Origin: Obrimoposthia wandeli
Lineage: Eukaryota
Direction of reading: 5' to 3'
Length of the DNA stretch: 64,000 nucleotides
NCBI GenBank assembly: GCA_977020255.1
Contig: CDROCS010001778.1
Span: 372,001-436,000 of the forward strand
The position numbers and the translations under genes were made by a program. Below are positions 103 through 28,508 of the stretch, in pieces. The notes under the pieces were generated by a model. The model was not told the origin of the DNA. It was given only the letters and a program-made list of their open reading frames with translations, and searched no databases. The first letter of the stretch is position 1. Each line of letters begins with the position of its first letter.

Positions 103-2553
103 TCAGGTTACTTCTTTGTAACCCAAGTTATCATGACTATGTTTAACCAATTCTGCTCGCACTTCTTCCAATCGGTGCACTTTAATTGTTTGCAATTTGG
201 CCAAAACTTCTGGAGCTTCACTCGTTTCATCTAACGGTTGATTCAACGTCTCCTTAGCTTCACTAATTATCTTTTTTACATTTTCCATACTCGTAGCATT
301 CCTTGCTGCTTCTACATGATCGGTCATAGGTTGTGCGTTACACGTTTTCTCTATTGGTGTCTCATACGCTTCTAGTATTCTATTCATTAAATCATTCATC
401 TCTTCTCTCGAGTGTAGATTTTTCTCTTGTTTTGACAACGTAGATGAATTTGCCATCTTTGTATGTGGTGAATCTTTAATTATTCCCAACATTCGTTCAA
501 ATTTACTATCACTATCTTCAAAATCTATTTCGCGTCGAAGCTCGGTTTCGCGATTCCTATCACTGTCATCGCTTACATAACTAAAATTTCCTTTCGGTTT
601 CGGCGAACTCTCACGACTATTTGTCTTGTCGACATTATTATTATTATATCTACCAGAATTATTATATCTCTCAGCTCCTTGCTGTCCTACGTAATTATTG
701 TATCTCTCAGCTCCTTGCTGTCTATCTGCATAGTTATTATATCTACCTGGTGACTGTTGTCTATCTGTATACTGATTATTCAGTCTCCATGGCTGTGGAG
801 TATATCCACCACCTCTATTCCATGGCAGAGGTGAATTATATCCTCTATAATTGTTTCCAAAATTATTATTACCGAAATTATTATTTCCAAATCTGTTAGC
901 TCCGAACTCTTTACTTCTCGTACAATCTCTCGAATAGTGACCCATTTGTTTACATGTGTAACACATTATTCTCCCTCGAATATCTATCTTATTTTGTTCA
1001 TCTTCGAACTGTACTCGACGACTATTCTGTCTATTATCATAGCGTCCTCTAAAATCATTTCTTCGGAAATTCGATTCAAAACCGCTTCCTCGATTATTGA
1101 ATCTTCCGTCACTATTTCCTGTATTATTTCCAAATCGAGAGTCACTTCGCTCTCCTCTGTTGGCGTTATAATTCCTATCGTCTCCTCTCCAAGGTTGGCG
1201 ATTTCCTGAATTATCTCTATTAAATCTATTCCTGGAATCATCTCTATTTCTATTCCACGAATCATTATTATTTCTACCTCTTGAATCATCTCGATTCCTG
1301 TTCCAAGACTCACTATTATTTCTACCTCTCGAATCATCTCGATTCCTACTTCGGAAATTATCTCTATTTCCGTTACTGGATTCATCTACTTTTTCAAACT
1401 TATTTTGTCCATAATTTCGATTCTGAAAATTACTCGGTTCTGTTTTATTCACGAAGACCTTTGTCTTATCGTCGTCACCTGCAGTCATTGCGTAGATTGC
1501 CAATGCTGCATTATTCTTTATATTTTTCTCAATCTCTCTCGCCTTTCGCACGGCGTTATCAAAATCATTTGTATCCGATACTGCTAATAACACTTTAATA
1601 TCCTTTTTCAATCCTCCTCTAAATATATCTAACAAGACCTCTGCCATTTCATTTTGGTTCCGGTCATTTTCCGCTGCTTGTACTTCTGGAGCTACAGGAT
1701 TACCGTCCTGATTTCTCATTATTCTTCTTGGGTACGCTCTTGCGGCCAAGGTTCTTAAAACATACGCGTATTCATTCACGCCTTCATCATGTTTCTGTTT
1801 CCGTTCTCTCATGAGTCGCTTATTTACTTTGGCTAAGTCTCCTAATACCAATTTTCCAATAAAAGCATTTTCCAACGTTGGCCAGTCTAAACGTTCTGCT
1901 TCTGTCAAATGTTTATACACTTCAAGTGCTAATCCGGTTAAATGTGCCTGTACTCTGACACATTTTTCTTTATCGTTCCATCCTTGAACATCTGCACAAC
2001 TCGAATATTCTGCGAGGAAGTCACAAATACTTTCCTCATCTCCTTTAAACTTTGTAATCTGCAATGATCCTGAAAAGTTGGGTCTCAACGTCGCATTTAA
2101 GGCTTGTGCCAACTGCTCGGCATTCATGTCACCTACATTATTTCCTGCATTATTTTCTGCTTGAGCTCCTGGTTGAGCCATATTTTCAACTATATCTTCT
2201 TCAACTATTTCTTCAATATTATTCAATGGAACTTCCTCAATCACTACTGGATTGGCAATTTCAAATTCTTCTGGGTCTATGTCACCAAATAATTCAGTCA
2301 AATTAAAACTGCCGGTTGAAACCGCTGATTGATCAACGTCTCTTTCTGATACGTTTTCTTCGACTCTAGTTTTTTCTGTTACTTTGTTATCTGTTTGGGG
2401 AACCTGTTCAATTCGGTTAACTTTATTATTATTTATCTCTTCCTTGGGAATCTGACTTTGTCTTCTAGTATTATACGCGGGTCCTTTTCTATTATCCGTT
2501 GTCTTATCAATTATGTATTCGTTTACGATATCAATATACTTATTATTTTTATC
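103..2553 (-). CDS. gag: Ty3/gypsy LTR-retrotransposon Gag with CCHC zinc knuckle and N/R/G-rich regions
   Basis: Retrotransposon gag-like core (FKGDEESICDFL...LENAFIGKL...KQKHDEGVNEYA) and knuckle CYTCKQMGHYSRDC (about 920-966). Lies downstream of a PBS and LTR. The frame is open from 2553; the track starts it at TTG 2301. Any pol would lie left of the window. Confidence 0.9.
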   Translation of the reverse strand, partial: DKNNKYIDIVNEYIIDKTTDNRKGPAYNTRRQSQIPKEEINNNKVNRIEQVPQTDNKVTEKTRVEENVSERDVDQSAVSTGSFNLTELFGDIDPEEFEIANPVVIEEVPLNNIEEIVEEDIVENMAQPGAQAENNAGNNVGDMNAEQLAQALNATLRPNFSGSLQITKFKGDEESICDFLAEYSSCADVQGWNDKEKCVRVQAHLTGLALEVYKHLTEAERLDWPTLENAFIGKLVLGDLAKVNKRLMRERKQKHDEGVNEYAYVLRTLAARAYPRRIMRNQDGNPVAPEVQAAENDRNQNEMAEVLLDIFRGGLKKDIKVLLAVSDTNDFDNAVRKAREIEKNIKNNAALAIYAMTAGDDDKTKVFVNKTEPSNFQNRNYGQNKFEKVDESSNGNRDNFRSRNRDDSRGRNNSESWNRNRDDSRGRNNNDSWNRNRDDSRNRFNRDNSGNRQPWRGDDRNYNANRGERSDSRFGNNTGNSDGRFNNRGSGFESNFRRNDFRGRYDNRQNSRRVQFEDEQNKIDIRGRIMCYTCKQMGHYSRDCTRSKEFGANRFGNNNFGNNNFGNNYRGYNSPLPWNRGGGYTPQPWRLNNQYTDRQQSPGRYNNYADRQQGAERYNNYVGQQGAERYNNSGRYNNNNVDKTNSRESSPKPKGNFSYVSDDSDRNRETELRREIDFEDSDSKFERMLGIIKDSPHTKMANSSTLSKQEKNLHSREEMNDLMNRILEAYETPIEKTCNAQPMTDHVEAARNATSMENVKKIISEAKETLNQPLDETSEAPEVLAKLQTIKVHRLEEVRAELVKHSHDNLGYKEVT

Positions 2554-2792
2554 TTATTTCACAATTCTTATTTTACAATTTTTTATCTCTTTAATTAGTT
2601 CGAGGACAGAGTCTCCCGACTTAACCTATTCAATTAATTACTTCGAGTATCAATCCACTCGATTCTCACTTTATCAAATTTATTTACGATTTTATCTTTT
2701 TAATTAGTTCGAGGACAGAGTCTCCCGACTTAACTTATTCAATTAATTACTTCGAGTATCAATCCACTCGATTCTCACTTATAAAATTTACT

Positions 2793-3384
2793 GACTCGAG
2801 GAACAAATCCACTCGGCTTCTCAAAACCTATCGAATTCTTAACTTCGAGGAACAAATCTACCCGATTTCTCAAAAACTTATCAAATTCTTAACTTCGAGG
2901 AACAAATCTACCCGATTTCTTAACACTTATCAAATTCTTAACTTCGAGGAACAAATCTACTCGATTTCTCAAAACTTATCAAATTCTCAACTTCGAGGAA
3001 CAAATCTACTCGATTTCTCAACACTTATCAAATTCTTAACTTCGAGGAACAAATCTACTCGATTTCTCAAAAACTTATCAAATTCTTAACTTCGAGGAAC
3101 AAATCTACTCGATTTCTCAACACTTATCAAATTCTTAACTTCGAGGAACAAATCTACTCGATTTCTCAAAAACTTATCAAATTCTTAACTTCGAGGAACA
3201 AATCTACTCGATTTCTCAACACTTATCAAATTCTTAACTTCGAGGAACAAATCTACTCGATTTCTCAAAAACTTATCAAATTCTTAACTTCGAGGAACAA
3301 ATCTACTCGATTTCTCAACACTTATCAAATTCTTAACTTCGAGGAACAAATCTACTCGATTTCTCAAAAACTTATCAAATTCTT
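2793..3384. repeat. Tandem array of alternating 49/50-bp units in the retroelement leader
   Basis: Unit aacttcgaggaacaaatctactcgatttctcaa(aa/c)acttatcaaattctt, starting at 2841, 2891, 2940, 2989, 3038, 3088, 3137, 3187, 3236, 3286, 3335, plus one degenerate unit. Preceded by a duplication of about 122 bp (2577-2790). Confidence 0.95.
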
Positions 3385-3656
3385 CTGAAACTTATTCTCA
3401 ATTGTCTATATTCTTCTGCTGAAACTTATTCTCAATTTATCTGAAACTTATTCTCAATATCTGAAACTTATTCTTAATATCTGAAACTTATTCTTAATAT
3501 CTGAAACTTATTCTCAATGTCTGAAACTTATTCTTAATATCTGCACTTATTCTATTTACCTGAAACTTATTCTCAATTTTCCAAAACTTATCTGAACTTA
3601 TTCTATTCACCTGAAACTTATTCTCAATTTTCCAAAACTTATCTGAACTTATTCTA
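3385..3656. repeat. Degenerate ~20-bp tandem array (ctgaaacttattctcaatat) in the leader
   Basis: Directly visible repeated ctgaaacttattct core. Confidence 0.9.
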
Positions 3657-3682
3657 CGTGAATTCGCTGTGTCCGACGAGCT

Positions 3683-3701
3683 ATCCTCACTCGGGGCACC
3701 A
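3683..3701 (-). promoter_or_regulatory. Primer binding site complementary to elongator tRNA-Met
   Basis: Minus strand TGGTGCCCCGAGTGAGGAT matches the 3' 19 nt of metazoan elongator tRNA-Met as recalled (...ATCCTCAC[A/T]CGGGGCACCA). It lies 8 nt from the LTR end. Confidence 0.85.
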
Positions 3702-4190
3702 CTTTAATATGTTGGGGTTTCTATACGAAACTTGGTATAGAGCCTCTAAATGTGCGGAGGGCCCCAACGTGAGTTCGATTAGAAGCAGGTCTTAAAGTTG
3801 GTCGTGGCCTACTTAGTGTTATGGTTGCCTAATCTCTTGTACTATCTGAAGGTATTTGATTTGATGTCTCTTAGTCTGAAGGGTGTAAAAACAACTTGTT
3901 CTAATGTAGGAAATTGTTTATTTGTAATTCACGTAACTAACACAACAATACGTTTATGTACGTATTTCTAAAAAGTATGATAAAATTCCTAAAGGACTTC
4001 TGTAAGTCTCTACAAGAAGTGGGGATGAACCACGTATCGATTTTACGTTCAGGTGATTAAGCTTTTTAGGTTTAGTCTTCTTACTTAGGTTGGTTAATCT
4101 ATAACGCAACTCTCTTAATTTTCTTCGCTCCTACTTCTTATCTCTAGCTAAAGTTTCTTGGTTCCTTAACTCTATCTGTGTGTGTTTGAC

Positions 4191-4624
4191 CCGAATTGTC
4201 TACTGTGAACAATGGGTCTCCTAAAAACCTAATTGTCAAGATGACAATGAAAAACTTACTCCTAATTGTCAACTATGGACAATGAACGAACCGAATTGTC
4301 AGCTAGGGACAATGAGTCTTACCGAATTGTCTACTAGGGACAATGAGTATTTATCCGAATTGTCAACTAGGGACAATGAATGAACCTAATTGTCAGCTAG
4401 GGACAATGAATCTTACGGGTAAAAGTCTGGGTAGGATTCCTAATTGTCGCTGGGGACAATGAATAAATGGCCGATCTTAATTACCAACTAGGGGCAATGA
4501 TTTTGTTAAAGAGTCGGAAATCCTAATTGCCAGCTAGGGGCAATGAATCTGTGTATTAGTTTAAAATTTAGAATTACCAACAAGGGGTAATGACAGTATC
4601 CTAATTGCCAACTAGGGGCAATGA
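4191..4624. repeat. Repeat-spacer array of 12 palindromic ~25-bp units inside LTR1
   Basis: CC(T/G)A-ATTG(T/C)C-N7-G(A/G)CAAT-GA units separated by non-identical 5-29 nt spacers. Confidence 0.9.
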
Positions 4625-4766
4625 ATAGTTTAGTTGGTGTTCTTACCAGTTACTGCTACTAGTGGGACGTCCGGTGTAGGATCCGTAGGTCTTTCGGAAT
4701 CTTCTTCGAAACAGAGCTTATTACTTGTGGGAGGTTGAGTACACGCTTGAATATACTTTGACTTTG

Positions 4767-5176
4767 AATTATCTCCACTGACTTGAACCTTTAATACAAT
4801 CAATTATCTCCACTGACTTGAACCTTTAATACAATCAATTATCTCCACTGACTTGAACTTTTAATACAATCAATTATCTCCACTGACTTGAACTTTTAAT
4901 ACAATCAATTATCTCCACTGACTTGAACTTTTAATACAATCAATTATCTCCACTGACTTGAACTTTTAATACAATCAATTATCTCCACTGACTTGAACTT
5001 TTAATACAATCAATTATCTCCACTGACTTGAACTTTTAATACAATCAATTATCTCCACTGACTTGAACTTTTAATACAATCAATTATCTCCACTGACTTG
5101 AACCTTTAATACAATCAATTATCTCCACTGACTTGAACTTTTAATACAATCAATTATCTCCACTGACTTGAACTTT
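4767..5176. repeat. 35-bp minisatellite (~11.7 copies) inside LTR1
   Basis: Unit aattatctccactgacttgaacttttaatacaatc, near-perfect copies. Confidence 0.95.
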
Positions 5177-5698
5177 TTTGGACACTTGGCTTTTTGGACA
5201 CGAGAACTTAATTGTTCGATTTGTGGTCAGGGAGTTGAATCCCGTATTTGTGATTTGGGTTTCTCCTGTCTGCCTTTTATAGAGGCACTGAACGTCAATC
5301 AATTGACGGCTGCTAACGATTTGGTTCGGAAGATATCGGAGAGGCAAGGAATGGAATGTCAATCAATTGACAGCTGAAATTGAAATTTAGTTAACTGCAC
5401 GAAAATGTGCTTACCTCTTGAAATCCTTGATTGACGTTTTTAATTAACCGTTTAATTTTCTGACTTTCTCCTTAATTAATTTTTTGTCCTTTTGGTTAAT
5501 TAACTCTAAACTTTTATACATTTTCACATAATACACGACCTTCGTGGTCCTCCTAATTTTTACCCTAAATTCCACTAATTTTAATTCTAAAACTTAAAAT
5601 TAATATTTTAATTTAATTTTCAACCTTGCTTTCAAGGATTTTTATTTTAGTATTTAATCGACTAAAATATTTAAATTTCTTAATTCTCAATCCTAACA

Positions 5699-6437
5699 GT
5701 GTAAATGAATACGCTTGTGTTTTGCGAACCTTGGCAGTACGAGAGAACCCAAGTAGCAGAAGATAGTTGGAATCAAAACGAAATGATGATTCGAGGAATG
5801 GAGAAACAGAGAATAATAGGGAATTATATGAACCGAGAAATATATTTAATTAGAATAGAGATAATTCAAGAAATCGTTAACCCTGGAAAGGAGACAATCA
5901 GAATAATCGTGTAAACGGAGGATTGAATCGACTTTCGTTTCAGAAATAATTCAGGATATAGGGATGGAAAATTCATTAACCGAGAATGCAACAATTAGAC
6001 AAAATAGTCGTCGAAAAAAAATAGTTTGAGGACGACTAGAATAAAATAGATATATACGTGTAAGCAAATCGGTCATTAAGTGAGAAAGTGTACAAGATGT
6101 AAAGAATTCGGTACTTACAGTCAGTGAATAAAACTCACCCCCTGGAATAGAGGGGGCAGTTAAACTCCGCCATATCGAAGAGAAAATAACCAGTACACAG
6201 ATAGACAACAGTCACCAGGAAGATATATAATTATGCAGATAAACAGCAAGTAGCTGAGAGATACGATAATTCAGGAAGATATAATAATGTTGAAAAGACA
6301 AATAATCGTAAGAGTTCACCTCAACCAAAAGGAAATTATAATTACATAAATGATGACAGCGATAGAAACTGCGAGATGGAACTAAAACGTGAAATAGATT
6401 ATGAAGATAATGATAATAAATTCGAACGAAAATCGTG
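5699..6437 (+). pseudogene. Degenerate, internally deleted gag paralogue in opposite orientation
   Basis: gtaaatgaatacgcttgtgttttgcgaaccttggc matches gag VNEYAYVLRTLA. It then jumps to the DSWNRN region and continues to the RETELRREIDFED-like segment, with stops and frameshifts. Confidence 0.8.
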
Positions 6438-6877
6438 AACTTGTCTACGTTATCACGTAAAAATAATTTTAAAAAACATTTATTTTAAAAACATTTATTT
6501 TATGATTTTATAACTTTATAACCTTCACTGAGAAGGTTATTTATTTACTATAAATACTTTTGTTATTTATTTTTTCTTATTCTAACATAACCATAACGTT
6601 TATCTTAGAAAGTCATGCTGAAATTTAGACAATGGAGACAATCACTTTCATTTTTCTTAGACGATGTGATATTTCCATATAATTATATCATATAAAATAT
6701 TATATAATAAATATGGTCACTTTTATAGTATATAATAATGAAATTTTTAAAATTATATTTTTATCAGTACAATTAAGGATTGTCGAGTACATTGTTAAAT
6801 AAACAAAAATTAAATTTTAAAATTAAATATTGTCTAAATTTTGTGTTCAATACTGTAAGATATTAGTCAATTATTTA

Positions 6878-9122
6878 AGTTATGTTTCTATCGTAGAAAT
6901 AATTCAAAATTTAGATTCCACAACACAATTTATATTATACAGGTTTACATAAGAATTTATAAACAAATATTACCGTTAGGATATTTCTGGTTTCTGATTT
7001 CATAACTCTCTTCTTCACTATTCAAACACTAACTTCTTCAGTCATTCGATTCTCCAGGAAAGGAATCTTGTTGGAAACTGAATTGACGTCTGTCGTGGAC
7101 TCAAATAAATATATTATTATATATGGGTCTTCATACTGGTATCTATTCTTGCTTCTTTTAATTGGTTTCTTTTTAACCTATTCATTTACTTCAAATATCC
7201 TTTCCCCTTTTTTTCATTATCTAATTTCTCTAAATTTTCAGCTGCGATTTGTTGGTTCTTCTCTATGTCTTTAATAATATATTTTTTATTGTTTGTTGTT
7301 GCACTTTATGTATTATTTTTACTTTTATTCCATAAATTATTTCAAACGGTGAATGTTTTGACGAACTATTTACTGTTGCATTTATAGAAAATTAAATTTG
7401 TGGCAATAAATAGTGCCAACATTTTTCTGTTTTAATATATACTATTGTCATAACAGTCATATCTCTTACTATACTTATAACTCTTTCTGCTAGATCGTTA
7501 GATTGATGTTGATAATGTGATGTTAGCTCCTGTTAAATACCAAATGTTGTAGCCAATTCTGAAAATAATTTCCGATAAATACTCGTTCTTTATCTGTTAA
7601 AATGCTCTTAGGTTTCCAAATTTATATATCCAATTTGTCTTTAGTGCTTTAGTAATTGTTATTTCATCTTCTTTTGCAGTTACTGATAGTGTTACAAGTT
7701 TACTAATTTGTTCATTTACTATCAACATATATTTATTTTTAGATTTTTCTTCCTTCATGTGGGCTATATTGACAACTATTTAATCTAAGAAAAAATTTTT
7801 GACTATAGGAATATATATTTATTTTGTTCTACTTGTTTCAATTTTTCTTTTCGCACTTTAAACGCGTTTTGATATGCATTCTTTTATTTCTTGAAACATT
7901 CCTTTCAAATAGAAGCTATCTTTCATATAGTTATAAACATTTTGCATTACAAGGTGACATAGATATTGGTGAATTGCATTAATAATTTCATTAGCGTTCT
8001 TCCGAGGTAAGACAATTAAATCTGTAATTTTTTTTTTCAAAATACAGGATATCATCGCAGAGTTTGAGTTTTTATTTTATCTGATAAATCCAACCTCTTT
8101 TGTTTGCATTCTTTTGATAAATCCTTACTTTCTAATTGGAGGAAAACTTTCATTTCTTAAATATGAATATATTTTTTTAATATTTTTTCTATCTTATTCA
8201 AGACGTTGACTTCATTTAGTAAGTTAATATATCGTATTTTAGATCTCTTCTCTTGTGCGTCTATATGTTTAGTTTCACATTGAGCACATACTGTTTCATT
8301 TAATCTTGACATGCCATCGGCATTACCATGGTCAATTCCTTTACGATGTATTGTTTGAGACATGATGACGGTTGTCTGACGGTTGTATTCTTTTTTTAAT
8401 GTATTAGTATCTGTATTCTGAACTTGAGCAATCTCGGTTTCCTTTTCTCAAATTTGCTATAAACCTTTGCCAACGCCTCTATTTCTTCTTTTGGCCTCTG
8501 AAGTTTTAATAAGAACTGCTCCTTCAGATTTTCACTTCTTACTCTATCCTTAATAAAAGCGTCAGTCAGCTCATCTTTGCTAACATTATTTTCCATTCTG
8601 GCCTCAACGAGGTTTCTGACTCTAATGCTGAACGCTGAGAAATGTTTGCCTTCTACTTGCTTCACCTTTGGGAGTTAGCAAACCTTGTCAACTATGGATT
8701 TCCTTTCTATGAATTTTTTTTCAAACTATTTTTTGACTTTAGTTTCTGAATTTTCTTTTTTACTGGTATCTTTCCATACAAATCCAGCTTCATCGGACAA
8801 CAGTAAATCAAATGCATCTCCGATATTAGTCTCATTTGCGTCAACCCATTCTCCTATATCTTTTAACCATGTATCACCTTCTTTTGAACTTGTTCCATCA
8901 TATCTTCTTATGTTGTACTGAAACATCTAGACTCGAGAAGATTATTTTTTCTTTATTTCTCGACATTACATTTATTTTGACGTGGTCACCAGTTATGTTT
9001 TATATAGTAGACATAATTTAACAGTTAGATTCCAGAACACAATTTATATATATATAGGTTTACATCGGAATTTATAAACAAATATTGCCGGTGGGCTATT
9101 TCTGGTTTCTAATTACATAACT
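6878..9122 (-). mobile_element. Old internally deleted Ty3/gypsy element with ~130-bp AGTTA...TAACT LTRs
   Basis: Direct repeats at 6878-7007 and 8991-9122. PBS-like TGGTGACC (tRNA-Trp-like) abuts the right LTR and a purine tract gaagaagag abuts the left LTR. Contains gag remnants (8396-8926), the RNase H end HRKGIDHGNADGMSR, an integrase zinc-finger region (7858-8055) and integrase core remnants. No RT core was seen. Confidence 0.8.
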
Positions 9123-12100
9123 CTCTCCAGTAGATTTGCTACCGAAAAAGGACGCCTAGTCGTATGAAGAAGAAGCAACCAGATCATCCAACTCCACAAC
9201 CCCAAAAATTCCGGGAGATTTTGATAACAATACCTATGATGACTTTGTTAAATGTTTTTTTTAAAATATAATTTTTAAAATAATCAAATTTTTGATTTAT
9301 TTCTTTAGTTTATTATATTATTTTATAAATAGTATGATAGTTGAATACATATATATCTTAAAACGTTATAGGTAATACATCTATCCTCCGATTTACGCGA
9401 TGGATTGGTTCCTGAGAACCCTATGTAAATCGAAACTGTGTAAATGGGGACAAAGACAGTATAGAAAACATATGATTGGTTTCAATTTAATAAAAAACGT
9501 GTAAATCGAGATTTAAACCCCATTAAAACTAATATATTGGTTCAAAGAAAAGAGTGTAAATCGAGAAAAATCAAAAGGGAATTTATTTTAAAACCAAACA
9601 GTAATTGAAATAGTTTATGGGGACTTGGATCGATAATTGGCCAATTGGTAATCTTTTGAGATCTAGTCTTTGTCATAAAATCTGTAATCCGTAGTTGTGT
9701 TTCGATTTTTTGATAAATTTTTATATATTTTCTCATAATTGGCTACAACATGATTAAGCTCCCGTCGAAATTGAACAGAAAAATTCAATATCAGGATCAT
9801 GTTGTAGAAAATTATTTCCCATTTCCTTCCAAATTAAAGACCTGTGCGAATTATTTTTGTTGTAAGTACAACTGGTTCTTTCTCAACATTAATGTATCAA
9901 CCAGAATCGTTGTCTACGTTTATCATGTTAACCAAATCATCCTCATCTAGACCATGATCAACCATTAATTCTTCAATATTAACATTTGCAGATTCCTCAA
10001 TGCCTTCACCGCCCGATAACTATGCTAACACGCTTATTTGGGAATATTCGCCCACTATTAGTGCAACAGAATTGTGGATTTCAACCACTTCTGACAATAT
10101 TTTCTTCCAACATGCATTTAGAGGTGATAAATTTATTTCTGAATATATATAATGCTGCAAGCTGACCGCAATTTAAAATTATAAAACCTTTCCAATTATC
10201 AGTTACCTCATAGCCCATTTTACCCCAAAATGTATCGGAAGGTGTGACGTAAAGTGCTTTAAAAGTGGAAATTATTCCCTGATCTAAAGGCTGTATTAAA
10301 CATGTCATATTTGGTGGCAAAAATATAATCTGCACAATTTCATAATTCAAATCTTTTGGATGGTCGGGAGCATTATCCACAAGCAATATGACTTTATATG
10401 ACAGCTATTTTTCAGTCATATGCTTTTTGGCTTCAGGTACAAAACACTTATGAAACCATTCAGTGAAAACTGTTACAGTGACCCATGCCTTCTTGTTGGC
10501 CATCCAATGAATACGAAGGCTTTTCACTTTCATTACTTTAAATGCTCGTGGTGTTAACGATTTATTGATAACCAAGTGCTTTATTATACGATCTCCAGAT
10601 TACCACAGAACAAGAATGTTACACGATCTTTTGCAGCTTTATGCCCGCAAGCTACATTTTGAGATTTGGCTAAATACGTTAACTATGACATTTTTTCACA
10701 ATCAACCGGTCTCATCCGCATTAAACACCTGCTTGGGAGTGTAGGAATTGACCTAAATAGTTTGTGCAAGTTTTGCTGGATATCCTTTTGCAGCTTTTAA
10801 TTCACCGGATGCTAGTTCACCTTTTGTTATAAGATTATATAAAGTTTGATTGCGGTAGTATCGATAGGTATTCTTTTAGTGTTTGATATTCTATCCATAT
10901 CAGTAACGCTTTTTCCAAAGCTTAAATATTAATATACCTCACATGTGAAGAAGTTATCTTATTCGTATCAGAACCGGCTGCTACACTCTTTTTAATATTT
11001 ATTTCATTGTTTTAATCGTAGCTTCATTCATACGATATGATTTGGCAACCACTGTTGAACTCTCTCTACGTTGATCAAAAAAATATTTTTTTGTTTCCTA
11101 AGATTTAACTTTTTGTTTGAGTGTGTTTCCCACTTTCTTTTGACATTATGGTGTTCTAAAAAATTTCATATACATTTTATAAGAAAAAAATTAAAATCTT
11201 ACGTTTTATTACTTACTACTGTTATAAATTTTCTTAAAAAATATGAAGAAAAAAACCAAAACAACTATCACAGGACTGTCTTGAAATTAAACTGGAAACG
11301 TAGGACCACAGATTCTAATTAAACAAATTTAAAAAAACTATGCCTATTAGAATTATACATTTTCAAAAAATATGTAAACATAAACAAAACACAGTGTAAA
11401 AATATACCGTGCTAATCGAGCGATGGGGTGAATTATTCAATTGTTAGGATTAGGTTTTGACTAAAATTAAATAATTAATTGATTTTATAGTGAAATAAAA
11501 ATCCTTGAAAGCAAGGTTATAATTAAAATAAAAAATTATAGTAAAATTAAAATAATCAAAATTAGAAAGGTAAATTAAATATATTAAGGACCACGAAGGT
11601 CATGTGTGATGCGTAAGTATTTATAGAGGTTGAAATCTATTAAAAGGGCCCCAAAAAAGGGATTACGTTAAAGAAGTAAATTAAACGAAGAAGAACGTGA
11701 AAAAGAATTAACTCAATAATAAACAGTTAGACAAGGCCAGCTAGAGAATTCCAAATTAAGAAATTAGGAAAAGTCAACAAAGTCGATTCCAAAGAAGAGT
11801 GCACGCAGAACAAACGAAGCTAATTCCCAAGCAAACAAGAAGAATCCACTAGCGCCATTAGCAATCGATTCTTAGTCACCGAGCCAGCCGCCAGATCTCC
11901 TCAACTCCACAACTCGTTGGAGGTAAGTGGCACTTAACCTAAGTGACTTAGTTAAATTGTTATTTAGGTAACGTATAAAAACAGAGCGAAGGGAAAAGAA
12001 AGCGCACAACAACGAATTAATATTGAAAAGAGAGAAAATCGAAATACGCTCCCAGGAAAATCCCATCGTTGGCCAGCGGAGAATCACGTTCATAGCATCC

Positions 12101-12411
12101 CGAATTAGAAGAAAAGAAAAGTATTAAGTTAATTTTTGGAAATTGAAACTTAATAAAATCTCATCGCTAGGCAGTAGAGAGCGTCGAGTAACGGGAAGTT
12201 ACCTCAAATCAGAAGGGCCGTAAAGGAAATTCGATTCCCAAGTTCGATCGGAGTAACGGAAAGAAACGCCGAGACGGAACAGCAGCTGAAAACAAATCGG
12301 ATCAGACAACGTGAGGAGCCAAGACAGGAGACTCGAATCTAGATCTGGTGGACTAATCGCTATATTAGGAAGAGGTGAGAAGTAGTCAGGTGGAATCATA
12401 TAAGATCGAGT

Positions 12412-13026
12412 CTTGAATTATTATAACATAATTTTGCATTGACGTTTGAAAGTAATCTTATTGAACTTGAATTATTATAACATAATTTTGCATTGAATTT
12501 TGAAAGTAATACTTATTGAACTTGAATTATTATAACATAATTTTGCATTGAATTTCGAAAGTAATCTTATTGAACTTGAATTATTATAACATAATTTTGC
12601 ATTGAATTTCGAAAGTAATCTTATTGAACTTGAATTATTATAACATAATTTTGCATTTAAATTTCGAAAGTAATCTTATTGAACTTGAATTATTATAACA
12701 TAATTTTGCATTGAATTTCGAAAGTAATCTTATTGAACTTGAATTATTATAACATAATTTTGCATTGAATTTCGAAAGTAATCTTATTGAACTTGAAGTA
12801 TTATAACATAATTTTGCATTGAATTTTGAAAGTAATACTTATTGAACTTGAATTATTATAACATAATTTTGCATTGAATTTCGAAAGTAATCTTATTAAA
12901 CTTGAAGTATTATAACATAATTTTGCATTGAATTTCGAAAGTAATCTTATTTGAACTTGAATTATTACAACGTAATTTTGTATTGAATTTTGAAATTATT
13001 ACGAAATAATATTACATTAAATTTGA
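12412..13026. repeat. 54/55-bp minisatellite (~11 copies) inside LTR2
   Basis: Unit ttgaacttgaattattataacataattttgcattgaatttcgaaagtaatctta. Confidence 0.95.
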
Positions 13027-13397
13027 ACTATTGTGGAAGTACAAGAGAAGTTTTGATTTCGTACAAATTATAAACTACTAACAGTCTCTACAAATTAGAG
13101 CCAGTGTTTTTTTGTTGAAATTAATAATTTACTAAAAGCCTCTATAAATTAGAGCAAAATCTTGGTTCGTTATAGTTCTTAAGAAAAAGAAGTTGTCCGT
13201 TTTAAGTAAGGAAGTTGATCTAGCGAATTAGATTGAGATCAAAGAGTTTGATTTAGAAATCTCATTAAAACCACCCTTAAATTAAAATTGATACGTGGTT
13301 CATTCCCACTTGTGGAGAGACTTACAGAAGTCTTAGGAATTTTATTGTCATTTTTTAGAATACGTACTTAAACGTATTGTTTCGTGTTAGTCTAGTG

Positions 13398-15910
13398 CAG
13401 GGTTTCTCAACGGGGGCCACACGAGCCAAACAAAAATAAAAAATTAACACCCCTGTTTTCACTGGGTTAAACACTTTGATGGCTGCACACGTGTGCCACA
13501 AATAAATGTTTGACATGGAATAAAAACAGAGTATAGACTTCTAGATACATATGGACGCGACGCGTCAACTTATTGCGTGGGCGTACCAGCCCAATGAGGG
13601 CCGACGGTAAAACATCATAATATGCCTTTGCAAAAATATCATCGCGCTACAAAAGTTTGTGTGGCGGATGTGGCATGTGCATAATCATCATCCTGAGTAA
13701 TCTATGGACTAAAATCAGTAATTGTGTTGTGTCTCAGCGTGTGAAGAGAAGAGTGTCACACTTCATGTGTACATGCCCAAAATACGCTGCCATTGTAAAA
13801 TGCTACCTACCTAACTCACAAACGTGCACTTGTGTTTGTTTTGAATGAGTCAGTGGTTGATCTCTTTCTTCTTGTTTGTCATTCACCATATCTGAATGTA
13901 CACACATAGGACCTTGTTTTTCTAATTGTCTTTTTGCTCACGTTACCCTTGTAAACAATTTTCAATTCTGATTTTTAGTTGACAATGAGCAGCAAGAAAA
14001 GGTGCAGACAGTATAATTGTGATTATTTACGTTTCGGATTCATTGCAAGCCAAAGTAATTCTCAACTTCCTGAGTGTATTGTCTGTAACACTGTGCACTC
14101 CAATGACTCAATGCGACCATCAAAACTTGAGGCTCATCTCCAAAAGAAGCATCCTGACATTGCAACAAAACCGCGCGCATATTTTACTCAGCTTCGTGAT
14201 CAGAGGACAACAGCCTCAACCCAATTGCGAAAATTTGTGGTTCCTCAGAACTCTACTTCTGGCTTAACAGCATCATATAAAATTGCATATTTAATGGCGA
14301 AACAGGGTAGAGCGCATACACTGGCAGAGCAGTTGATTAAACCTGCTATCTTGGAAGCATTTAATGTTGCCAATGTATCAAATCCACAGTCAGTGCTCGC
14401 ATCGATTCCTCTCTCAAATGACACCATATCGCGACGTATTTCTGATATGGCTGCAAATGTGGAATTCATCATCACAAATGATCTTCACAATTCACAATTC
14501 TCATTGACGCTTGATGAAAGCACATTTTCGAACCAAGCGGTTGTTTTGGCATTTGTCCGTTTCGTCAAGGATAGACAACTCAAGGAAGAGTTGTTGTTTA
14601 TCAAAACTGTGGTAAACACGACAGGCGAATCTGTGTATAACACAGTCTGTAAGTACTTCGAGGATCATGGTATAGACAAGAAAAACATGATATCCATTTG
14701 CACTGATGGTGCCCCATCTATGGTGGGTAAAAAGCAAGGTGTTGTCGGTCGCTTTCTGCAAGACAGGACCATCTTTACAATGCACTGTGTACTTCACTGT
14801 GAGAATTTGGTCGCGAAAGACTTGGGCGGAACAACTTTGATGGATTGTCTTAAAATTGTTGTCTCAGCAATTAACAAAATAAAGGCAAGAGCTTTACAAG
14901 ACCGCCTTTTTCGTGAAGCTTGTCAAGATGAGCACTTTAAATGCTTGCTTTACTATACCGAGGTACGGTGGCTCTCGATGGAAAACTGTCTGTCGCGATT
15001 TGTCAATCTGACAGAGTTGTTGAATTCTTGAGCGAAAGAGATGCTAATCTCACAAACAAACTGATTGAAAGCAAAAGCACCATTTTATATCTGGAGGCAA
15101 TATTTGGAAAACTAAACGAGCTTAACATGGTTATGCAGTCACAAAATTTCAATATTGTTGATGCCAAGCGAATTATCAAATCATTTATGAACAAATTGAT
15201 CGTTTGGGCAGCAAGTATTCGTGCTGGTAACTTCAGTCATTTCCCAAAATTGGCCAACGATGTTTGCAATCCAGATTTGCGAGACATCATTTTAGTGCAC
15301 TTGGAAGTCCTGTATACAAACTTTCAGCTAAGATTTGAGGATTTAATTGTGTTGACTATTCCAGCATATATTGATTGTCTTCACGTCATGACAGTCGATC
15401 AAATCATCGATTTTCCTGAGAACATTCAAATGGAGTTATGTCAAGTTCTCAGAGATGACAAAATGATCAGCATGTCAAAGCAGAATTGGGTGGCAGCATG
15501 GCTGGAAAATTCAGAAATTTATCCGGAAATTTTCAAGAAGGTTTATCCCTTTATTGTTAATCTACCGACGTCGGTGTAAGCTGAGAAGGGGTTCTCAGTT
15601 GTCCTTCATTCGTTCGCAAAACAGCGGATGAATCTCAAGTTGTGTGACAATGCAGAAATCCGTTTACGACTTTCTGAAATTGCTCCAGATTTTACTACAC
15701 TTGTTGGCAAACGCCAAGCGCAAGGGTCACACTAACATTTTTTAAATATAGTTTTCTCATTGATTATCTTTTTGAATGTTTCCATGACAGAATAGTATAA
15801 TTGAAAACAATACGTATACGATGTAATCTTTTTGTCCATAGTAGAGGGGGGCCACAGCAATTTGCTGCAAACTAAAGGGGGCCGTGGTGAAAAAAGGTTG
15901 AGAAACCCTG
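13398..15910 (+). mobile_element. hAT (Buster-type) transposon, 2513 bp
   Basis: Perfect 14-bp TIRs CAGGGTTTCTCAAC. 8-bp TSD GTCTAGTG (13390-13397, 15911-15918) with central TA. Subterminal GGGGGCCAC motifs at both ends. Confidence 0.95.
13982..15735 (+). pseudogene. Buster/ZBED5-like hAT transposase with one frameshift and one premature stop
   Basis: BED-like finger (CIVC...MRPSKLEAHLQKKH), LTLDEST, ICTDGAPSM, HCVLHCENL and EVRWLS motifs, and C-terminal AEKGFS...RQAQGSH. Frameshift near 15000-15030 and TAA at 15577-15579. Confidence 0.9.
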
Positions 15911-16822
15911 GTCTAGTGTATTAATAAATAAACGATTTCCTACAACTAGAAGCATTGTTCTAAACCCTTCAGATTAAGATTAAAACAACAAACCTTTAGA
16001 TAAGAATTGAGACAGGCAACCATAACATTAAGTAGGCCACAACCATCCTTAAGTCCTGCTTCTATAGAACTCACGTTGGGGCCCTCCACATTCAAGAGGA
16101 TCTATAAGTTTCATATAAAAACCCCAACACAATTTAAGTCCCGTGTAAAAGTGAAAACGTGTAAAAATGTACTGTGTAAATCGGGAAATAGGTATATACA
16201 CAAAAAAGTACAATTTATCAATATTGATTTTAAATAGGCTTCATTTTATTTAAAGTAATATTTTCAAAATTCAAATGATTATTAAATATTTGTTTGTTTT
16301 GTTGTAGAACCATTTTTTACATATTTATAATAAAATAGCATATTAGGAATAATTATATTCATAATTCTAATTAAATATTTTATATAATTTCATGTAATGG
16401 AATTTTACTCGCTTACTTTAAAATTTATAAATTCTTTAATTATATATTAAAAAGAAAAAATTTTTAAATATTGGTAATATTAAATTTATTAATTTAAAAT
16501 AATGTCATTGCATTAAAAGTATTTCAGAAATTATATAAATAAGTTCAGCAATTAATTAATTTAATTATTTTCAAATAATGGAATTTGAATATATAAAGGA
16601 GCTGATAGCACAGATTAAGGAAAGTGTGATAAAAAAAGTTAGGAGACCTGCCTAAGAGGTTTTAAATCAGTAGTAAATTTTGATATGGTGAAGTACTGGG
16701 AAAATTAAAAACAAATGCATTTAGGATTTATTTTTTTGTTATTTATAAACGAATATTCTATTAATTTGAGGCTTTATTAATGAATGGAGATTATATTATA
16801 AATTAATTATGTGTTATGCAAG

Positions 16823-18824
16823 TGTTAGGATTAGGTTTTGTTAAAATTAAATAATTAGTTAAATTTATACTAAAATGAAAATCCTTGAAAAAAGGTTAAA
16901 ATTAAATAAAATTAAAATTAAAAATTAAAATGTAAAAAGTTAAAGGAAAATTGAATATTAGAGGACCACGAAGGTCGTGTGAAATGCGTTAATATATATA
17001 ATGTTAGTTTAAAAAAAAAAGGGCAAAAAATTAATTAATAAAAACCAAGGGAAATTAAGTAACGAAGAAATCCAGTCGACGTCAGCAAAAAAGGTAAGCA
17101 CATTTTAAGTGCCAATCGATTACCTACAGTTGCAGGAAATTAGCCAAGCCGAGAAGAAGTGATTGACAGTCTACGTCAACCCAGAAGAGAGAAATTGTCA
17201 ATTTGGACTCAGCCCACTTGTCCGCACACCGAGAAGAAAGAGACTATATAAGTCTACTAAATTAGTAATTAACAAACGGAAAAAACCAAACTAAAGAAAA
17301 AAGGAGCAGAAATCGCGTCAGAGCAACAACGCAGGTGGTTTTATTGAGACTAATCTACTATAGTCCACTAGAAATCGTTCCACAGAAAAGGACTCAACTA
17401 TTCTCCTGACAACCGTGATCGCTTACAACTATTCTCCTGACAACCGTGATCGCTTACAACTATTCTACTGACAACCGTGATCGCTTACAACTATTCTACT
17501 GACAACCGTGATCGCTTACAACTATTCTACTGACAACCGTGATCGCTTACAACTATTCTACTGACTACCCGTGATCGCTCACAGGAGATCCCATCAATTT
17601 AAATAGGTGAGAGTACGCGAAGTACATTTATAAAATTGTGTAAAATATTGGTGAGAGTACGCGAAGTACATTTATAAAATTGTGTAAAATATTGGTGAGA
17701 GTACGCAAAGTACATTTATAAAATTGTGTAAAATATTGGTGAGAGTACGCGAAGTACATTTATAAAATGGTGTAAAATATTGGTGAGAGTATGCAAAGTA
17801 CATTTATAAAATTGTGTAAAATATTGGTGAGAGTACGCAAAGTACATTTATAAAATTGTGTGAAATCATTTTGAATTTACTTACCATTTGAGTTTTTGAG
17901 AACTAAATTTTATTAAAAGAAAAAGTATAAATTTGACCGTTAAAGTTGAAATCATTTTGAATTTACTTACCATTTGAGTTTTTGAGAACTAAATTTGATT
18001 AAAAGAAAAAGTATAAATTTGACCGTTAAAGTTGAAATCATTTTGAATTTACTTACCATTTGAGTTTTTGAGAACTAAATTTGATTAAAAGAAAAAGTAT
18101 AAATTTGACCGTTAAAGTTGAAATCATTTTGAATTTACTTACCATTTGAGTTTTTGAGAACTAAATTTGATTAAAAGAAAAAGTATAAATTTGACCGTTA
18201 AAGTTGAAATCATTTTGAATTTACTTACCATTTGAGTTTTTGAGAACTAAATTTGATTAAAAGAAAAAGTATAAGTTGATTGTTAAAGTTAAAGATATTT
18301 TGAATTTACTTACAATTTGAGTTTTTGAGACGAAATTTGATTGAAAGAAAAAGTATAAATTTGATTGTTAAAGTATAGTTGTTTTACATTAACCCTATTT
18401 TAAAAACGTATTAAAAGTGAAATTGATTTGAAAAATCTATAACTTGAGCTTATTCGCGAGTTAGAGGAACGACTCTAAAATCTCGATTACCCTTAACATA
18501 AAATCGATACGTGGTTCATCCCCACTTGTGTAGAGACTTACAGAAGTCTTAGGAATTTTTACTATACTTTTTAGAAGATACGTACGTAAACGTTTAGTCT
18601 AGTGTGTTACCAATAAACGATTTCCTACATTAAAAAAAACGTTGTTTTACACCCTTCAGAGTAAGAGACATAAAAAACAAACACCTTCAGATAAGAAATT
18701 GAGACAGGCAACCATAACATTAAGTAGGCCACGACCAACTTTAAGACCTGCTTATATTCGAACTCACGTTGGGGCCCTCCGCACACAAGAGGATCTGTAC
18801 AAGTCTCGTATAGAAACCCCAACA
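16823..18824 (+). mobile_element. Solo LTR (LTR3, ~2.0 kb)
   Basis: TGTTAGGA...CCCCAACA termini. Flanks caag/aaag could be a 4-bp TSD with one mismatch. End blocks are homologous to LTR1 and LTR2. Confidence 0.88.
17396..18375. repeat. Three abutting tandem arrays in LTR3 (31-bp, 44-bp and 86-bp units, ~6 copies each)
   Basis: 17396-17582 aactattctcctgacaaccgtgatcgcttac; 17606-17861 ggtgagagtacgcgaagtacatttataaaattgtgtaaaatatt; 17862-18375 an 86-bp unit starting at 17862, 17948, 18034, 18120, 18206. Confidence 0.95.
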
Positions 18825-23443: not shown

Positions 23444-25111
23444 CAGTAAGTTCCGGATTATCCGAACATATATGTTTTTCATTATAATTTTGGTGTTTGA
23501 GTATGCACTGTAGTTAACTTCTTCGTCCTCATTTTCTGAGAGCTCTTCAGGTTCACTTCATGGCTATAGCTCTTTCTATGATTTCATTTCAATAATTGCA
23601 GAAATGTAAAACAGTTTTGTATCTTTAAAAAATTTAGACATGTGGAGCCTATCAAAATTTTTCTCGGAAAATATCAATTTACACGTGAGCGCTTTTTGTG
23701 TCACCTTTTTAGGTTTTCCAATACAGATTGATCCACTGATTGGACAAGTGACGTAACATTGGCGACATACAATAGATTTTTTTCACAAAGCAATCCGAAG
23801 AAACATCTAGAACTTGCATTGAACTCCTCGCTTTGGGCAGGATAATTTTATTGAACAATATCACTGCTTTTTCGGTAACTATTACTCTACTGGTGGGGAT
23901 ATTCTTCTCCCTTAGTGGACGTAACCAAATATACAGTAAGACACAAAGTTTTACAAAAGTACAGGTTTCCATAATCTTTAAAGTCGCCGAGCACTGTCCC
24001 TTTTCCTGCTGATCACGTTTGCAAATCTTCAGCTTTTCAAAAGAAGCTTTTAAAACACAAATTGTGCTGCGCCGAACTACGTTCTTTTCAGAAATGTGTC
24101 CATAGCTGTGTTGGGGTTTCTATTAATCTAAATTCTCGTACGGAGGCCCCCAACGTGAGTTCTGAGGTGATAGGGCTTACATATGGACGTGGCCTACCCA
24201 TTCTAATTTATGGATGTTTGTCTCGCTTATCTGAAGGTTTTCTATTTGTTGTTGTATCGTGTATAAAGATTGGGTTTAGGATAACAAGAGGGACCCCAAA
24301 ACTATTGTTGTGGGGTGTGGAGCTGATGCATTGAGCCGGTTAGGCCGATGTGGATTTCATATTCAAAAAGGGTCTGTGAATAGATAAGAGTTAAAATCAA
24401 CAAAGGTAAGCTGGAATCAATCGACACAGACGATACTTCTCCTCTTAAAAATCCTATGCATATCTCAGAATTTGGATAACCGTCACGTTGGTTCATTCCA
24501 GTTCGTTGTTTTGAATTTCATCCAATTCGATTATACAAAACAGAATTCGCATTGTATGTTAAGGTTAAAATATATTTAATTAAGTACACTGATTTTAAAC
24601 ACACTAAATTGAACTAGCTAACAAATGACTACACACTATGACTTTACAATTTACTCGATAAGGATACTTTTTACTAAACATCGAGTAAACTTTATTGATT
24701 TCCACTTTAACTCTTTCAATTGATGCTTTATGATCCTATATATATATCCAACTTACAGTTTGGAAATCTCGGTTTAACACTTTCAATTATACTTTTATAA
24801 TCGGTTTACTTTAAACTGCCATCTATTCTTTTACAATTTTAACCAACCTTTATAACTTCGTAAAGGATAATTACAATACAACAGGGTAATCTATAGCTTA
24901 AGTTTATCATTGAACGTTAAAACAACTTTTTCTTTCGTTGAATGACATTTTTAACTTAAAAAAAATAATGCATTCCACAAAATAATACATGTTTATTGTA
25001 ATTATTTCTTTTTTATTATTTAATGTATTTATAGACTTTTTTTAAAAATTAAGCATGTTAAGATAGTTGAGAATTTGGATAATCAGAAGCCTGATAATCG
25101 GGAATTTAGTG
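23444..25111 (-). mobile_element. Second pogo/Tigger relic interrupted by LTR4
   Basis: TIRs cagtaagttccggattatccg / rc cactaaattcccgattatcag with TA on both sides. Remnants NVTSLVQSVDQSV (DDE_1) and N-terminal KEKVVLTFNDKLKL. Confidence 0.75.
24109..24883 (-). mobile_element. Shorter related solo LTR (LTR4); right boundary approximate
   Basis: tgttggggtttc...ggcccccaacgtgagttc block homologous to the LTR1-3 3' end. Putative other end is tacaaca. No clean TSD. Confidence 0.65.
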
Positions 25112-25879: not shown

Positions 25880-27300
25880 AATAATTTTTATCGAATAGAA
25901 TTGATGTACATTTGAAAATTATGTTTTTTTCCATCAAATTACGATATTTGTGTCAAGAAATTTCCCCATAGAGTTTAATTTTTTTAAACATTTAAATTAA
26001 CAACAAAAACATTTTTTGTAAAATATTTCTTTCGCAGAACTTTCAATCATACATGGAAAGAAATAATATTTAATTATGCTACTAGATTTACGGAGTTGTC
26101 AAGAAAGATAGCTTGATTTTATTTTATTATTATTGTAAATAAGCAACAGCAATTGATCTATAATAATATGAACTTTGCTATTTTTAAGTCCATACAGTTT
26201 ACAAAGTTATTTCAATATTATTTCAAAATTATTTCTTATTATATTATTAATCGATTAATTAAAATACAGCAAAATGGATGACTTGCAGAAGGATAGCAGA
26301 CAAAATATGAACACTGATCATTTGTCCAGTGTTTCAATTAATGCAGTTGCTGGAGAACGAGAACTCAAGGAGGAATTTGGTGGTATAACAATGCATCGAA
26401 CAACTTTCTTGACCATTTATAAACGGTTTGATGAAGTAGAAAGCATTCTGCGTAAAATTCCACAAGACAGACAATGAAGTGTCAGAACAGAACAAAATAA
26501 GAACATTTTCTACAGCAGATTATCTTGAATCATGCAGAAAGTTAACACTTAATACTGAAACAAGCCCCTCATCAATTTTACGATTATTACATGATCTAAA
26601 GATCAAACCATACATTCTTCAACTTGTCAATAAGTTATTAGCGGCTGATTTTGATTGTCGATTTAAGGTGTGTGATAGATTACTTGGTGTGATCGAGCAG
26701 AACCCTGGTATGATGGACAAAATTTTGTGGAGTGATGAGTCGAAATTTAAATTGAGTGGTACAGTCAATAGACACAATTATGTCTATTGAGCTACAGAAA
26801 ATTCATAAAGTACTATTCCACATCATAGCCAAAGTCCCAGTGTGATGGTAGGCTCGAATATTTTCCAGACAAATTGTGAACTACTTCGTTAATATGTTTT
26901 CCTCTTAAAAATCCTTACTAGTGTTTGTGCAGGATGGTACGTCTTCCCATTTTGCACACATTGTTCAAAACACACTGGATATAATCTGTCCCATCACTGG
27001 AGTGCGGTTCCATTGAATGGACTCCTCATTCTTCCTATTTAACTCCATACAACTTTTATGGGCCTCCCTAAAAGACCGAGTTTTTGCAAGATAACCATAA
27101 ACTCATGATGGTTTGAGATTTTAATTACAAAGGAGGCAGCAATCATTACACCTAATGGAGATCAATGCCTTTATTTTTAGTAAAATACTGATTGATCATT
27201 TGTTCTATTGTCAGTGTTTCAGCTGATTTTTGTAACTTGATTTTTGATATTTGAAAATATTAAATTTCGACTTACAAATTTATCCAACATATGACCAAAT
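25880..27300 (+). mobile_element. mariner-like (maT/rosa-type) transposase relic
   Basis: ILWSDESKFKLSGTVNRHNYVY, then QDG-like and P..P.LTP..F remnants, with multiple stops and frameshifts. Confidence 0.7.
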
Positions 27301-27736: not shown

Positions 27737-28508
27737 TGTTAGGGTTCTTTTTTACAATTTTGAGAATCATTCCGGTTATCTTCTAACACGGTACAATTTC
27801 CTCAGCACATTTATGTGAGAAAGGGTATTACGTGTTTGACAGATTGCTCTGAGTTACGTGACTCTATTCTTCAAGTTCCTCGCAGTAGGTACGTCTCTTT
27901 TAGAGGCTCACTTAGCTCTGTGCTGGATCTATGTGGCCTTGTCCTAGGACAGGGGTTCCAAAACATTTTTAGCCGTGAAATCCTTTAAAAAATTCTATAG
28001 CTTGCGGAACACATTTTTTAATTTTTTATGAATGAACCCAGTTTTATCAAACTTTAATGAGACATTAAATATTGTTTTCGAACATAGGACTTTATTTAAT
28101 TTTATGGAACTTTTAAAAATCGTATAGATTGAAAATTACGTAAATAATATAATAGAAAAAACAAAATGTTAAATAACATAAATAAATAAAATACCGACGG
28201 AACCCCTAATTTTTTGGCGGAACCCTAGGGTTACTCGGAACACACTTTGGGAACCCCTGTCCTAGGATATTGGTTTATAAATAGGTTATCTACTTCTGAA
28301 ATCTTGCCTCATTATCTGGAAATTAGAGAATGTGACTTGAGAACTTTTGGGGACTTTTACGTTATCCTATACACAACTCTTTAACAAATCTCGAAAACCT
28401 CCAGAGTCTAAAACATGTTGGCCACATCCATTTGTAAGTCCTATCGCTACAGAACTCACGTTGGGGGCCTCCGTACGAGGATTCTAAGTTTAAAAGAAAA
28501 CCCCAACT
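27737..28508 (+). mobile_element. Short related LTR (LTR5) containing a hAT MITE
   Basis: Starts TGTTAGGG and ends gaactcacgttgggggcctcc...aaaaccccaac. The 3' part is homologous to LTR4. Confidence 0.6.
27950..28259. mobile_element. Non-autonomous hAT (Buster-type) MITE, 310 bp
   Basis: TIRs CAGGGGTTCC(A/C)AAA and 8-bp TSD TCCTAGGA (27942-27949, 28260-28267). Confidence 0.92.

Follow-up and report, generated by a model that had tools for sequence, protein, structure and literature searches.

The long terminal repeats (LTRs) of an abundant retrotransposon family in Obrimoposthia wandeli hold, between conserved ends, a middle part that is nearly free of ATG and filled with tandem arrays. Our preferred reading, to which we give a probability of about two in three, is that this middle is an R region of about 1.6 kb, with transcription starting close to a conserved TATA box and ending about 190 nt before the LTR end, and with the duplications in it arising by strand transfer. 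Judged by its domains, LTR pair and copy number, the family is a Burro-like one among the giant Gypsy retrotransposons, and it is both young and very abundant. Giant Burro-like elements and tandem repeats borne by retrotransposons are already known; neither a kilobase-scale R filled with fast-turnover AUG-free arrays nor the U3/R/U5 anatomy of Burro was found in the portions of the literature covered by our search.

Results

LTRs with common ends and unrelated middles

The window, a stretch of 64,000 nucleotides, contains three LTRs with TG..CA ends: LTR1 at 3710..5698 on the minus strand (1989 bp), LTR2 at 11442..16129 on the plus strand (2167 bp after removal of a 2513-bp hAT and one 8-bp target site duplication, TSD) and LTR3 at 16823..18824 on the plus strand (2002 bp). 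The motifs that the initial annotation had described as shared were all found in place. These are the CCTTGAAA..AAGG hairpin (5624-5637 in LTR1, 11503-11516 in LTR2 and 16883-16895 in LTR3), a 14-mer (5537-5550 on the minus strand, 11588-11601 and 16963-16976 on the plus strand), TATA-like boxes (5512-5518, 11618-11625 and 16993-17000) and AATAAA (3917-3922, 15923-15932 and 18612-18617). In a self-BLAST the end blocks align at 73-86% identity and no match is found among the middles, so that the end blocks alone link the three LTRs, as had been claimed. The array units also agree with those first listed, except that the second array of LTR1 is a degenerate one of about 30 bp (81% matches) and not of 25 bp. 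The exact 14-mer has 14,751 matches in the 1.35-Gb assembly, compared to 2 for the reversed control, and is therefore not shared by chance. At about 2 kb each, some 14,750 copies would make up an estimated 2% or so of the genome.

Read from its 5' end, LTR1 begins with a putative U3 of about 210 nt (5489..5698, minus strand, as for all positions in this element) that contains the hairpin, the 14-mer and the TATA, and its predicted transcription start site (TSS) lies near 5488. This is followed by a predicted first intron of 41 nt (5374..5414, GT..AG, with a small hairpin inside), by a 35-bp array of 11.7 units at the first array hotspot (4767..5177), by a predicted major splice donor downstream of it (4646), and by the degenerate array (4264..4416), which is common to many related LTRs. 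The conserved 3' block (3710..4053) carries a TTTTAG acceptor-like site at 3968 and a predicted cleavage site at about 3905, and ends in a putative U5 of about 190 nt with blocks complementary to tRNA-Met.

LTR1 had been taken for a solo LTR, but belongs, as the 5' LTR, to a full element of about 23.5 kb with a 4-bp TSD. Its partner, 21.6 kb away (G000:C1778:354146-356169), is 2024 bp long and has one 35-bp unit more; the pair shows 3 mismatches in 1578 non-array nt, and the paired TG..CA ends with a TSD are those of a Ty3/Gypsy element. The primer-binding site (PBS; 3683..3701), 8 nt past the LTR end, can pair over 16 nt with the 3' end of a tRNA-Met(CAT) whose gene is in the same genome. It is followed by an ATG-free leader with arrays of 20/51-, 49- and 109-bp units (2554..3682) and by the gag ORF (103..2553, 816 codons from stop to stop, with a CCHC knuckle), whose first ATG is at 2179-2181. 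There is thus not a single ATG from the TATA of this element to 2181, 3.3 kb further on. Coding constraint on the 124 codons before the first ATG is not supported, with 32 synonymous and 82 non-synonymous changes there and 55 against 40 after it.

Pfam matches on the L092 ORFs and on P0001 give the domain order gag-PR-RT-RH-IN. Between the LTRs, an ORF of 2399 codons holds a fusion-glycoprotein-like domain, a protease, BIR, RING, a protease, RT and RNase H (PF24664 E=9.8e-95, BIR 5.4e-10, RING 2.5e-11), and further ORFs encode an integrase, a phosphatase, a protein of no assigned identity and three RING proteins. The closest database proteins, among the matches listed, are unnamed polyproteins of 2.9-4.1 kaa with 46-51% identity and the same set of fusion domain, PR, RT, RH and IN; no named Burro is found in the 120 of 206 matches listed.

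Of the other two LTRs, LTR2 is a solo LTR with an exact 4-bp TSD and a 54-bp array of 10.7 units (12412..12995) directly past a predicted donor at 12375. A hAT-like DNA transposon (13398..15910, plus strand, 2513 bp) with TIRs, a transposase in two frames and an 8-bp TSD (13390-13397 and 15911-15918) interrupts it directly upstream of its own AATAAA. LTR3 is a probable solo, since its flanking 4-mers differ by one base and neither PBS nor PPT adjoins it. It has its TATA at 16993, predicted donors at 17094 and 17607, AATAAA at 18612 and three arrays in 17395..18374, of 31 bp (6.1 units), 44 bp (5.9 units) and 86 bp (6.0 units); the 44-bp unit is single-copy in a close relative (L093).

The family was sampled through the LTRs around 87 matches to the 14-mer, taken in contig order. 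Dropping 11 incomplete LTRs and 2 same-flank duplicates left 74, and one of these (L133a) was removed later to leave 73; an intact 14-mer was required, and LTRs above about 3.7 kb are invisible to this procedure. The 74 consist of 24 5' LTRs, 21 3' LTRs, 23 solos with TSD, 5 possible solos and 1 internal LTR, and extrapolation from the 23-28 solos among them gives about 4,600-5,600 solos genome-wide. The median length is 1984 bp. The total of 2.0-2.2 kb first proposed describes the mode (35 of 74 at 1.9-2.25 kb) and not a limit, because lengths range from 1328 to 3277 bp and the longest LTRs (3.2-3.3 kb) are solos. Any constraint on length is soft rather than strict.

Probable position of the promoter and of the poly(A) site

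All 73 LTRs have a TATA-like box 13-18 nt past the 14-mer, about 170-180 nt into the LTR, and the arrays begin downstream of it, about 450-1000 nt into the LTR. No TATA-like position common to at least five of the 73 was found within the last 600 nt. ATGs are frequent up to the TATA and are gone from about 50 nt after the start of the 14-mer. When each array is collapsed to one unit and 52 lineages are counted, sense ATG is the most depleted of all 64 trinucleotides in the core (28 observed, 602 expected, O/E 0.05), while antisense ATG is near normal (682 observed, 758 expected, O/E 0.90). The controls are normal as well, with an O/E of 1.07 for 22 3' LTRs in the 260 nt ahead of them and of 0.86 in 47 host flanks. 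ATG loss is usually explained by selection that removes upstream AUGs from a scanned 5' leader, and read in this way the loss places the arrays downstream of the TSS.

Donor-like GGTRAG also differs between the strands, being 7-fold enriched in sense (90 observed, 13 expected) and not in antisense (9 observed, 12.5 expected). Many lineages have a short GT..AG segment about 100 nt past the predicted TSS, with YAG distances that cluster at 41-45 nt (31 scored). Less favorably, a first donor 50-200 nt past the predicted TSS is seen in only 36 of 51 lineages and the second, major donor near +930 in only 39 of the 51, and the core shows no enrichment of acceptor-like YTYAG (240 observed, 262 expected). 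Given the TATA position, the strand-specific ATG loss and the donor asymmetry, a short U3 that leaves the arrays downstream of the promoter, as the initial annotation proposed, is strongly supported at the level of sequence, and the TSS is probably near +205 of the LTR. The long R that it also proposed is likely.

At the other end, 68 of 73 LTRs have an AATAAA at a distance of 201-220 nt from the terminus, so that R is likely to span about 1.6 kb. The conservation of this signal (0.92-0.97) is modestly above the mean of its block (0.86). It is part of an AATAAA..CA..GT-rich pattern in 43 of 51, and in 43 of 51 TTTTAG precedes it by about 50 nt. The last 175 nt or so contain several blocks of 7-12 nt complementary to the primer tRNA, which fit what is expected of a U5. 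The likely layout is then a U3 of about 200 nt, an R of about 1600 nt and a U5 of about 190 nt, and the array-filled middle is likely to act not as an ordinary enhancer but as the template for an RNA leader of unusual length. It speaks against this layout that the core has not lost sense AATAAA (65 observed, 71 expected), and in its favor that A(A/T)TAAA is scarce around the predicted start, with 12 occurrences in 60 LTRs at offsets +40 to +69. A search for poly(A)-tailed retrocopies gave 0 matches, which is uninformative because one narrow pattern was searched. Four sequencing runs considered as expression evidence were set aside, since they behave as DNA and are silent on expression. Their depth is flat at about 50x, one 10-kb contig lies over host single-copy sequence in X3, and the joints listed include no GT..AG joint. 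Pairing of U3 with U5 through the 14-mer was also rejected, as no compensatory change was seen.

Other layouts of the LTR have to be weighed against these observations. The LTR could have a short U3, a short R and a very long U5, with the arrays in the 5' leader only and with early polyadenylation in the 3' LTR through U3 or a non-canonical signal. The ATG loss and the donors would fit this as well as they fit a long R, U3-located poly(A) signals are described for MMTV, HTLV and BLV in the part of the review used here (PMC12789967), and the U3 is rich in AATAAA (91 observed, 61 expected), although this has to be read against a U3 that is 44% A. Nevertheless, we consider a long U5, although a real rival, unlikely, because no fixed hexamer is present near the predicted TSS, a canonical AATAAA-CA-GT-rich site is kept about 210 nt from the end, and the tRNA-complementary blocks cluster in the last 175 nt or so. 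An ordinary long U3, with a promoter in the 3' block and the arrays as enhancer repeats ahead of it, is a common LTR layout, and Sirevirus LTRs as described in the available text have repeated motifs upstream of a conserved promoter (PMC2829016). The missing 3'-block TATA is weak evidence against it, because most planarian promoters are without one (TATA in just 5%, in the text of PMC10558129 drawn on here). Yet a long U3 leaves unexplained why ATG is lost 20-fold, in sense only, from the 5' TATA onward when its frequency just upstream of the 3' LTR is normal, and why donors are enriched in sense only. The units, furthermore, have no common motif by BLAST and 49 of 77 arrays are unmatched in other lineages, and we regard a long U3 as very improbable.

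Origin and turnover of the arrays

Twenty relatives of LTR1 were fetched and 19 recovered (L207 is without the exact 14-mer). Their identity to LTR1 is 89-99.6% in the first 480 nt and 97-99% in the last 900 nt. All 19 contain zero ATG and are 1761-2134 bp long, and at the same site they have units of 16, 17, 30, 35, 49, 50, 94 or 127 bp. A 20-mer that is single beside the LTR1 array is itself repeated, in other LTRs, at 16-, 30-, 49/50- or 94-bp spacing. Since near-identical relatives differ in their units, these arrays were born in place, and the occurrence of different units in a similar slot in this young group suggests a soft length optimum. In the wider sample, 55 of 61 lineages have arrays, 77 in all. 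No match in other lineages was found for 49 of these, 26 occur as arrays in another lineage too, and for 2 a relative has the unit in single copy. Cassette swapping is not the main source of new arrays, most of which form where they stand, at two hotspots.

Unit number changes quickly. Out of 17 candidate sister pairs, 2 were excluded as chance TSD matches (17-18% divergent), and it differs in 14 of the remaining 15, 14 of these 15 being less than 0.6% divergent. It also differs in 4 of 4 same-site duplicate pairs, so that arrays can change size with no reverse transcription involved, through slippage in the host or an error of assembly. The 49-bp array of the leader has one homologous unit in all of 25 elements, in about 5 to 20 copies, whereas the 24 main LTR arrays of the same elements fall into 18 unit groups. 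Turnover of the unit is therefore specific to the LTR, although the stable leader array may simply be functional.

Core segments are shared by 87 pairs of LTRs, 70 of which have close 3' blocks, and in 43 of the 44 such pairs listed the shared segment is joined to the 3' block. Some pairs whose 5' blocks are far apart have more than 1 kb in common, among them one (L096/L139) that shares 1068 nt at up to 98.6% with 5' blocks that are 28% different, and sharing of this type shows crossover inside the core. In 11 pairs, 8 of them involving L158, core segments are shared while both ends are distant. The comparison of core type with end-block relation called for by the initial annotation thus gave, among the sampled LTRs, few swaps of whole cassettes and sharing that mostly tracks the 3' block. 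The exact 35-mer of LTR1, the sole unit counted, has 150 matches genome-wide, and the 100 listed form clusters below a kilobase. An escape of LTR arrays into satellites was rejected on this count, and the proposed minisatellite generator is borne out inside the LTR, by births in place and turnover of units, with no large satellite among those 100 matches. Array and non-array length are weakly correlated (rho -0.33, permutation p 0.036, n=51), a correlation that may be a product of the array calling.

These data also bear on how the arrays came about. Cores that are interchangeable cassettes, swapped whole between fixed ends, would account for the 11 pairs with distant ends and for the 26 of 77 arrays common to another lineage. 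The prevalence of close 3' blocks among core-sharing pairs, the run of the shared segments into the 3' block and the building of differing units from one seed sequence in near-identical LTRs make such swapping at best a minor process, and as a general explanation we find it improbable. A more serious possibility, if still clearly short of even odds, is that the arrays change only by host slippage or unequal exchange after insertion, or partly through assembly error, which would be compatible with a long R. The differences in unit number among same-site duplicates and among sister pairs of mostly below 0.6% divergence, the variable leader array and the great length of some solos favor it, whereas a turnover of unit type in the LTR core but not in the adjoining leader, and crossovers inside the core, are not readily explained by slippage.

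Discussion

The long-R reading suggests the following mechanism. RNA would start directly past the conserved TATA box and end about 190 nt before the LTR end, and the ATG-free stretch would be a scanned 5' leader, selected for the lack of AUG and for a roughly constant length. The length of the leader would matter loosely and its sequence barely, and with such requirements any ATG-free duplication could be tolerated as filler. Given that R would be present at both ends of the RNA, an out-of-register first-strand transfer could create and resize duplications, and transfer between the two R copies may be the main source of new ones, which is the least certain step. Host slippage would change the arrays further once the element is inserted. 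It may also be that the upstream donors protect the poly(A) site of the 5' LTR, and intact solo LTRs could act as small, almost ATG-free units of promoter, intron and poly(A) site. A bolder combination is one that we put forward tentatively and rate somewhat below an even chance. It holds that the R of about 1.6 kb forms half of a 3.3-kb AUG-free leader, that copying between two R regions makes hundreds of lineage-private minisatellites, and that about 5,000 solos are genes for capped, spliced and polyadenylated repeat RNAs.

If the long R is true, the known layout of LTRs would be stretched to a strong-stop DNA of about 1.8 kb and a 3.3-kb leader purged of AUG. The origin of tandem repeats by strand transfer, as proposed for Ogre, could then be tested on thousands of dated natural copies, with the stable leader array next to the LTR as a built-in control. 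Strand-specific loss of ATG offers a cheap way to place an LTR promoter from sequence alone. With about 2% of the genome in LTR copies, the family could supply promoters, repeat RNAs and length polymorphism on a large scale.

Among known systems, the whole element most resembles Burro/GYPSM1, a giant Gypsy of planarians with LTRs, more than 30 kb and thousands of copies, in whose maps tandem repeats are marked according to a figure legend (PMC6431247, here and below as far as the cited text goes). Both exceed 20 kb, occur in thousands of copies and have a Gag with a CCHC knuckle and accessory ORFs, and both have an env-like fusion domain in frame ahead of PR-RT-RH together with BIR and RING domains. 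Unlike Burro, the copy described here is about 23.5 kb long (LTR-end matches that share a contig are spaced 16-34 kb, by spacing alone), and one CCHC knuckle was found. In place of a single gag-to-IN polyprotein, Gag, Pol and IN are three ORFs in the one copy read fully, the ORFs scanned have no Pfam match to MATH, BCL2, ankyrin or dUTPase, and IN is followed by a dual-specificity phosphatase ORF and three RING ORFs.

The LTRs can be compared with those of retroviruses. Long-R LTRs occur in HTLV-1 and BLV, and U1-protected 5' poly(A) sites in HIV-1 and foamy viruses, in which the poly(A) signal of the 5' LTR needs suppression, possibly, as could be the case here, by a splice donor (PMC12789967, in the sections cited). 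Retroviral R is 15-250 nt long in that text, so that an R of about 1.6 kb, if true, would be about six times the longest, and unlike in HIV-1 or in foamy viruses, the predicted donors lie upstream of the poly(A) signal, within the LTR. Sirevirus LTRs, in the portion of PMC2829016 drawn on, also combine internal repeats with conserved ends, but their motifs share a conserved core and precede the TATA, while the arrays here have no core in common and follow it. The closest likeness in the arrays themselves is to Ogre/Tat elements, whose hypervariable monomers also vary in sequence and length between elements and for which abnormal strand transfer has been hypothesized, but not proven, as the source (PMC7004042, within the text available). 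According to the same text, Ogre arrays are part of the internal 3' UTR and give rise to large satellites. In the present family, by contrast, a single unit was counted and occurs in 150 exact copies, the 100 listed forming sub-kilobase clusters, and the arrays lie inside the LTR, ATG-free and downstream of the predicted promoter.

Insertion context and other features of the window

The giant Gypsy element that begins with LTR1 is likely to have inserted into a relative, since older gag-like sequence lies on both sides of it. One fragment, at window 5854-6430(+), matches the gag of the element at 71-76%, and another piece is found past the 3' LTR in L091, a stretch read for this element outside the window. 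Several LTR pairs have identical flanks and lie 2-34 kb apart on one contig (L104/L105, L118/L119, L112/L113 and L120); these could be either segmental duplicates or LTRs nested in LTRs of another element. The window also holds two short fragments of the 3' end of the LTR1-family LTR (24110-24241 and 28417-28507), an 877-bp inverted repeat pair of 88% identity (25893-26748 and 28735-29600) and a type IV collagen-like host gene with collagen repeats and a C4 domain (34069-38858, + strand).

Coding content

An env-like Monjiviricetes fusion domain shares its reading frame with BIR-RING-PR-RT (L092:1656-8852(-), L092 being a second outside stretch; L091:2954-9441(-)). The element further carries a dual-specificity phosphatase ORF and three RING ORFs (L092/L091, (-)), as well as a 386-codon ORF that had no Pfam match. 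The first ATG of gag is preceded by 124 open codons in frame (window 2182-2553(-)); among the other copies examined, most have about 118. Gag may possibly initiate at a non-AUG codon, but changes in this open stretch look near-neutral.

Priming sites and resemblance to the primer tRNA

Eight nucleotides (window 3702-3709) separate the end of LTR1 from the PBS, and the sequence at the PPT position (L091 near 2670-2690) is conserved and not purine-rich. In 47 of 60 LTRs, an exact 10-nt match to the primer tRNA-Met (window 5534-5543; L194) overlaps the conserved U3 motif, for which a post hoc shuffle test gave p of about 0.003. The final 175 nt of the LTRs, by contrast, contain blocks complementary to this region of the tRNA. 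Genes for tRNA-Met are tandemly arrayed at a spacing of ~284 bp (G000:C2252:200-11858 and C2837:586194-598329), with 54 matches on a single strand throughout.
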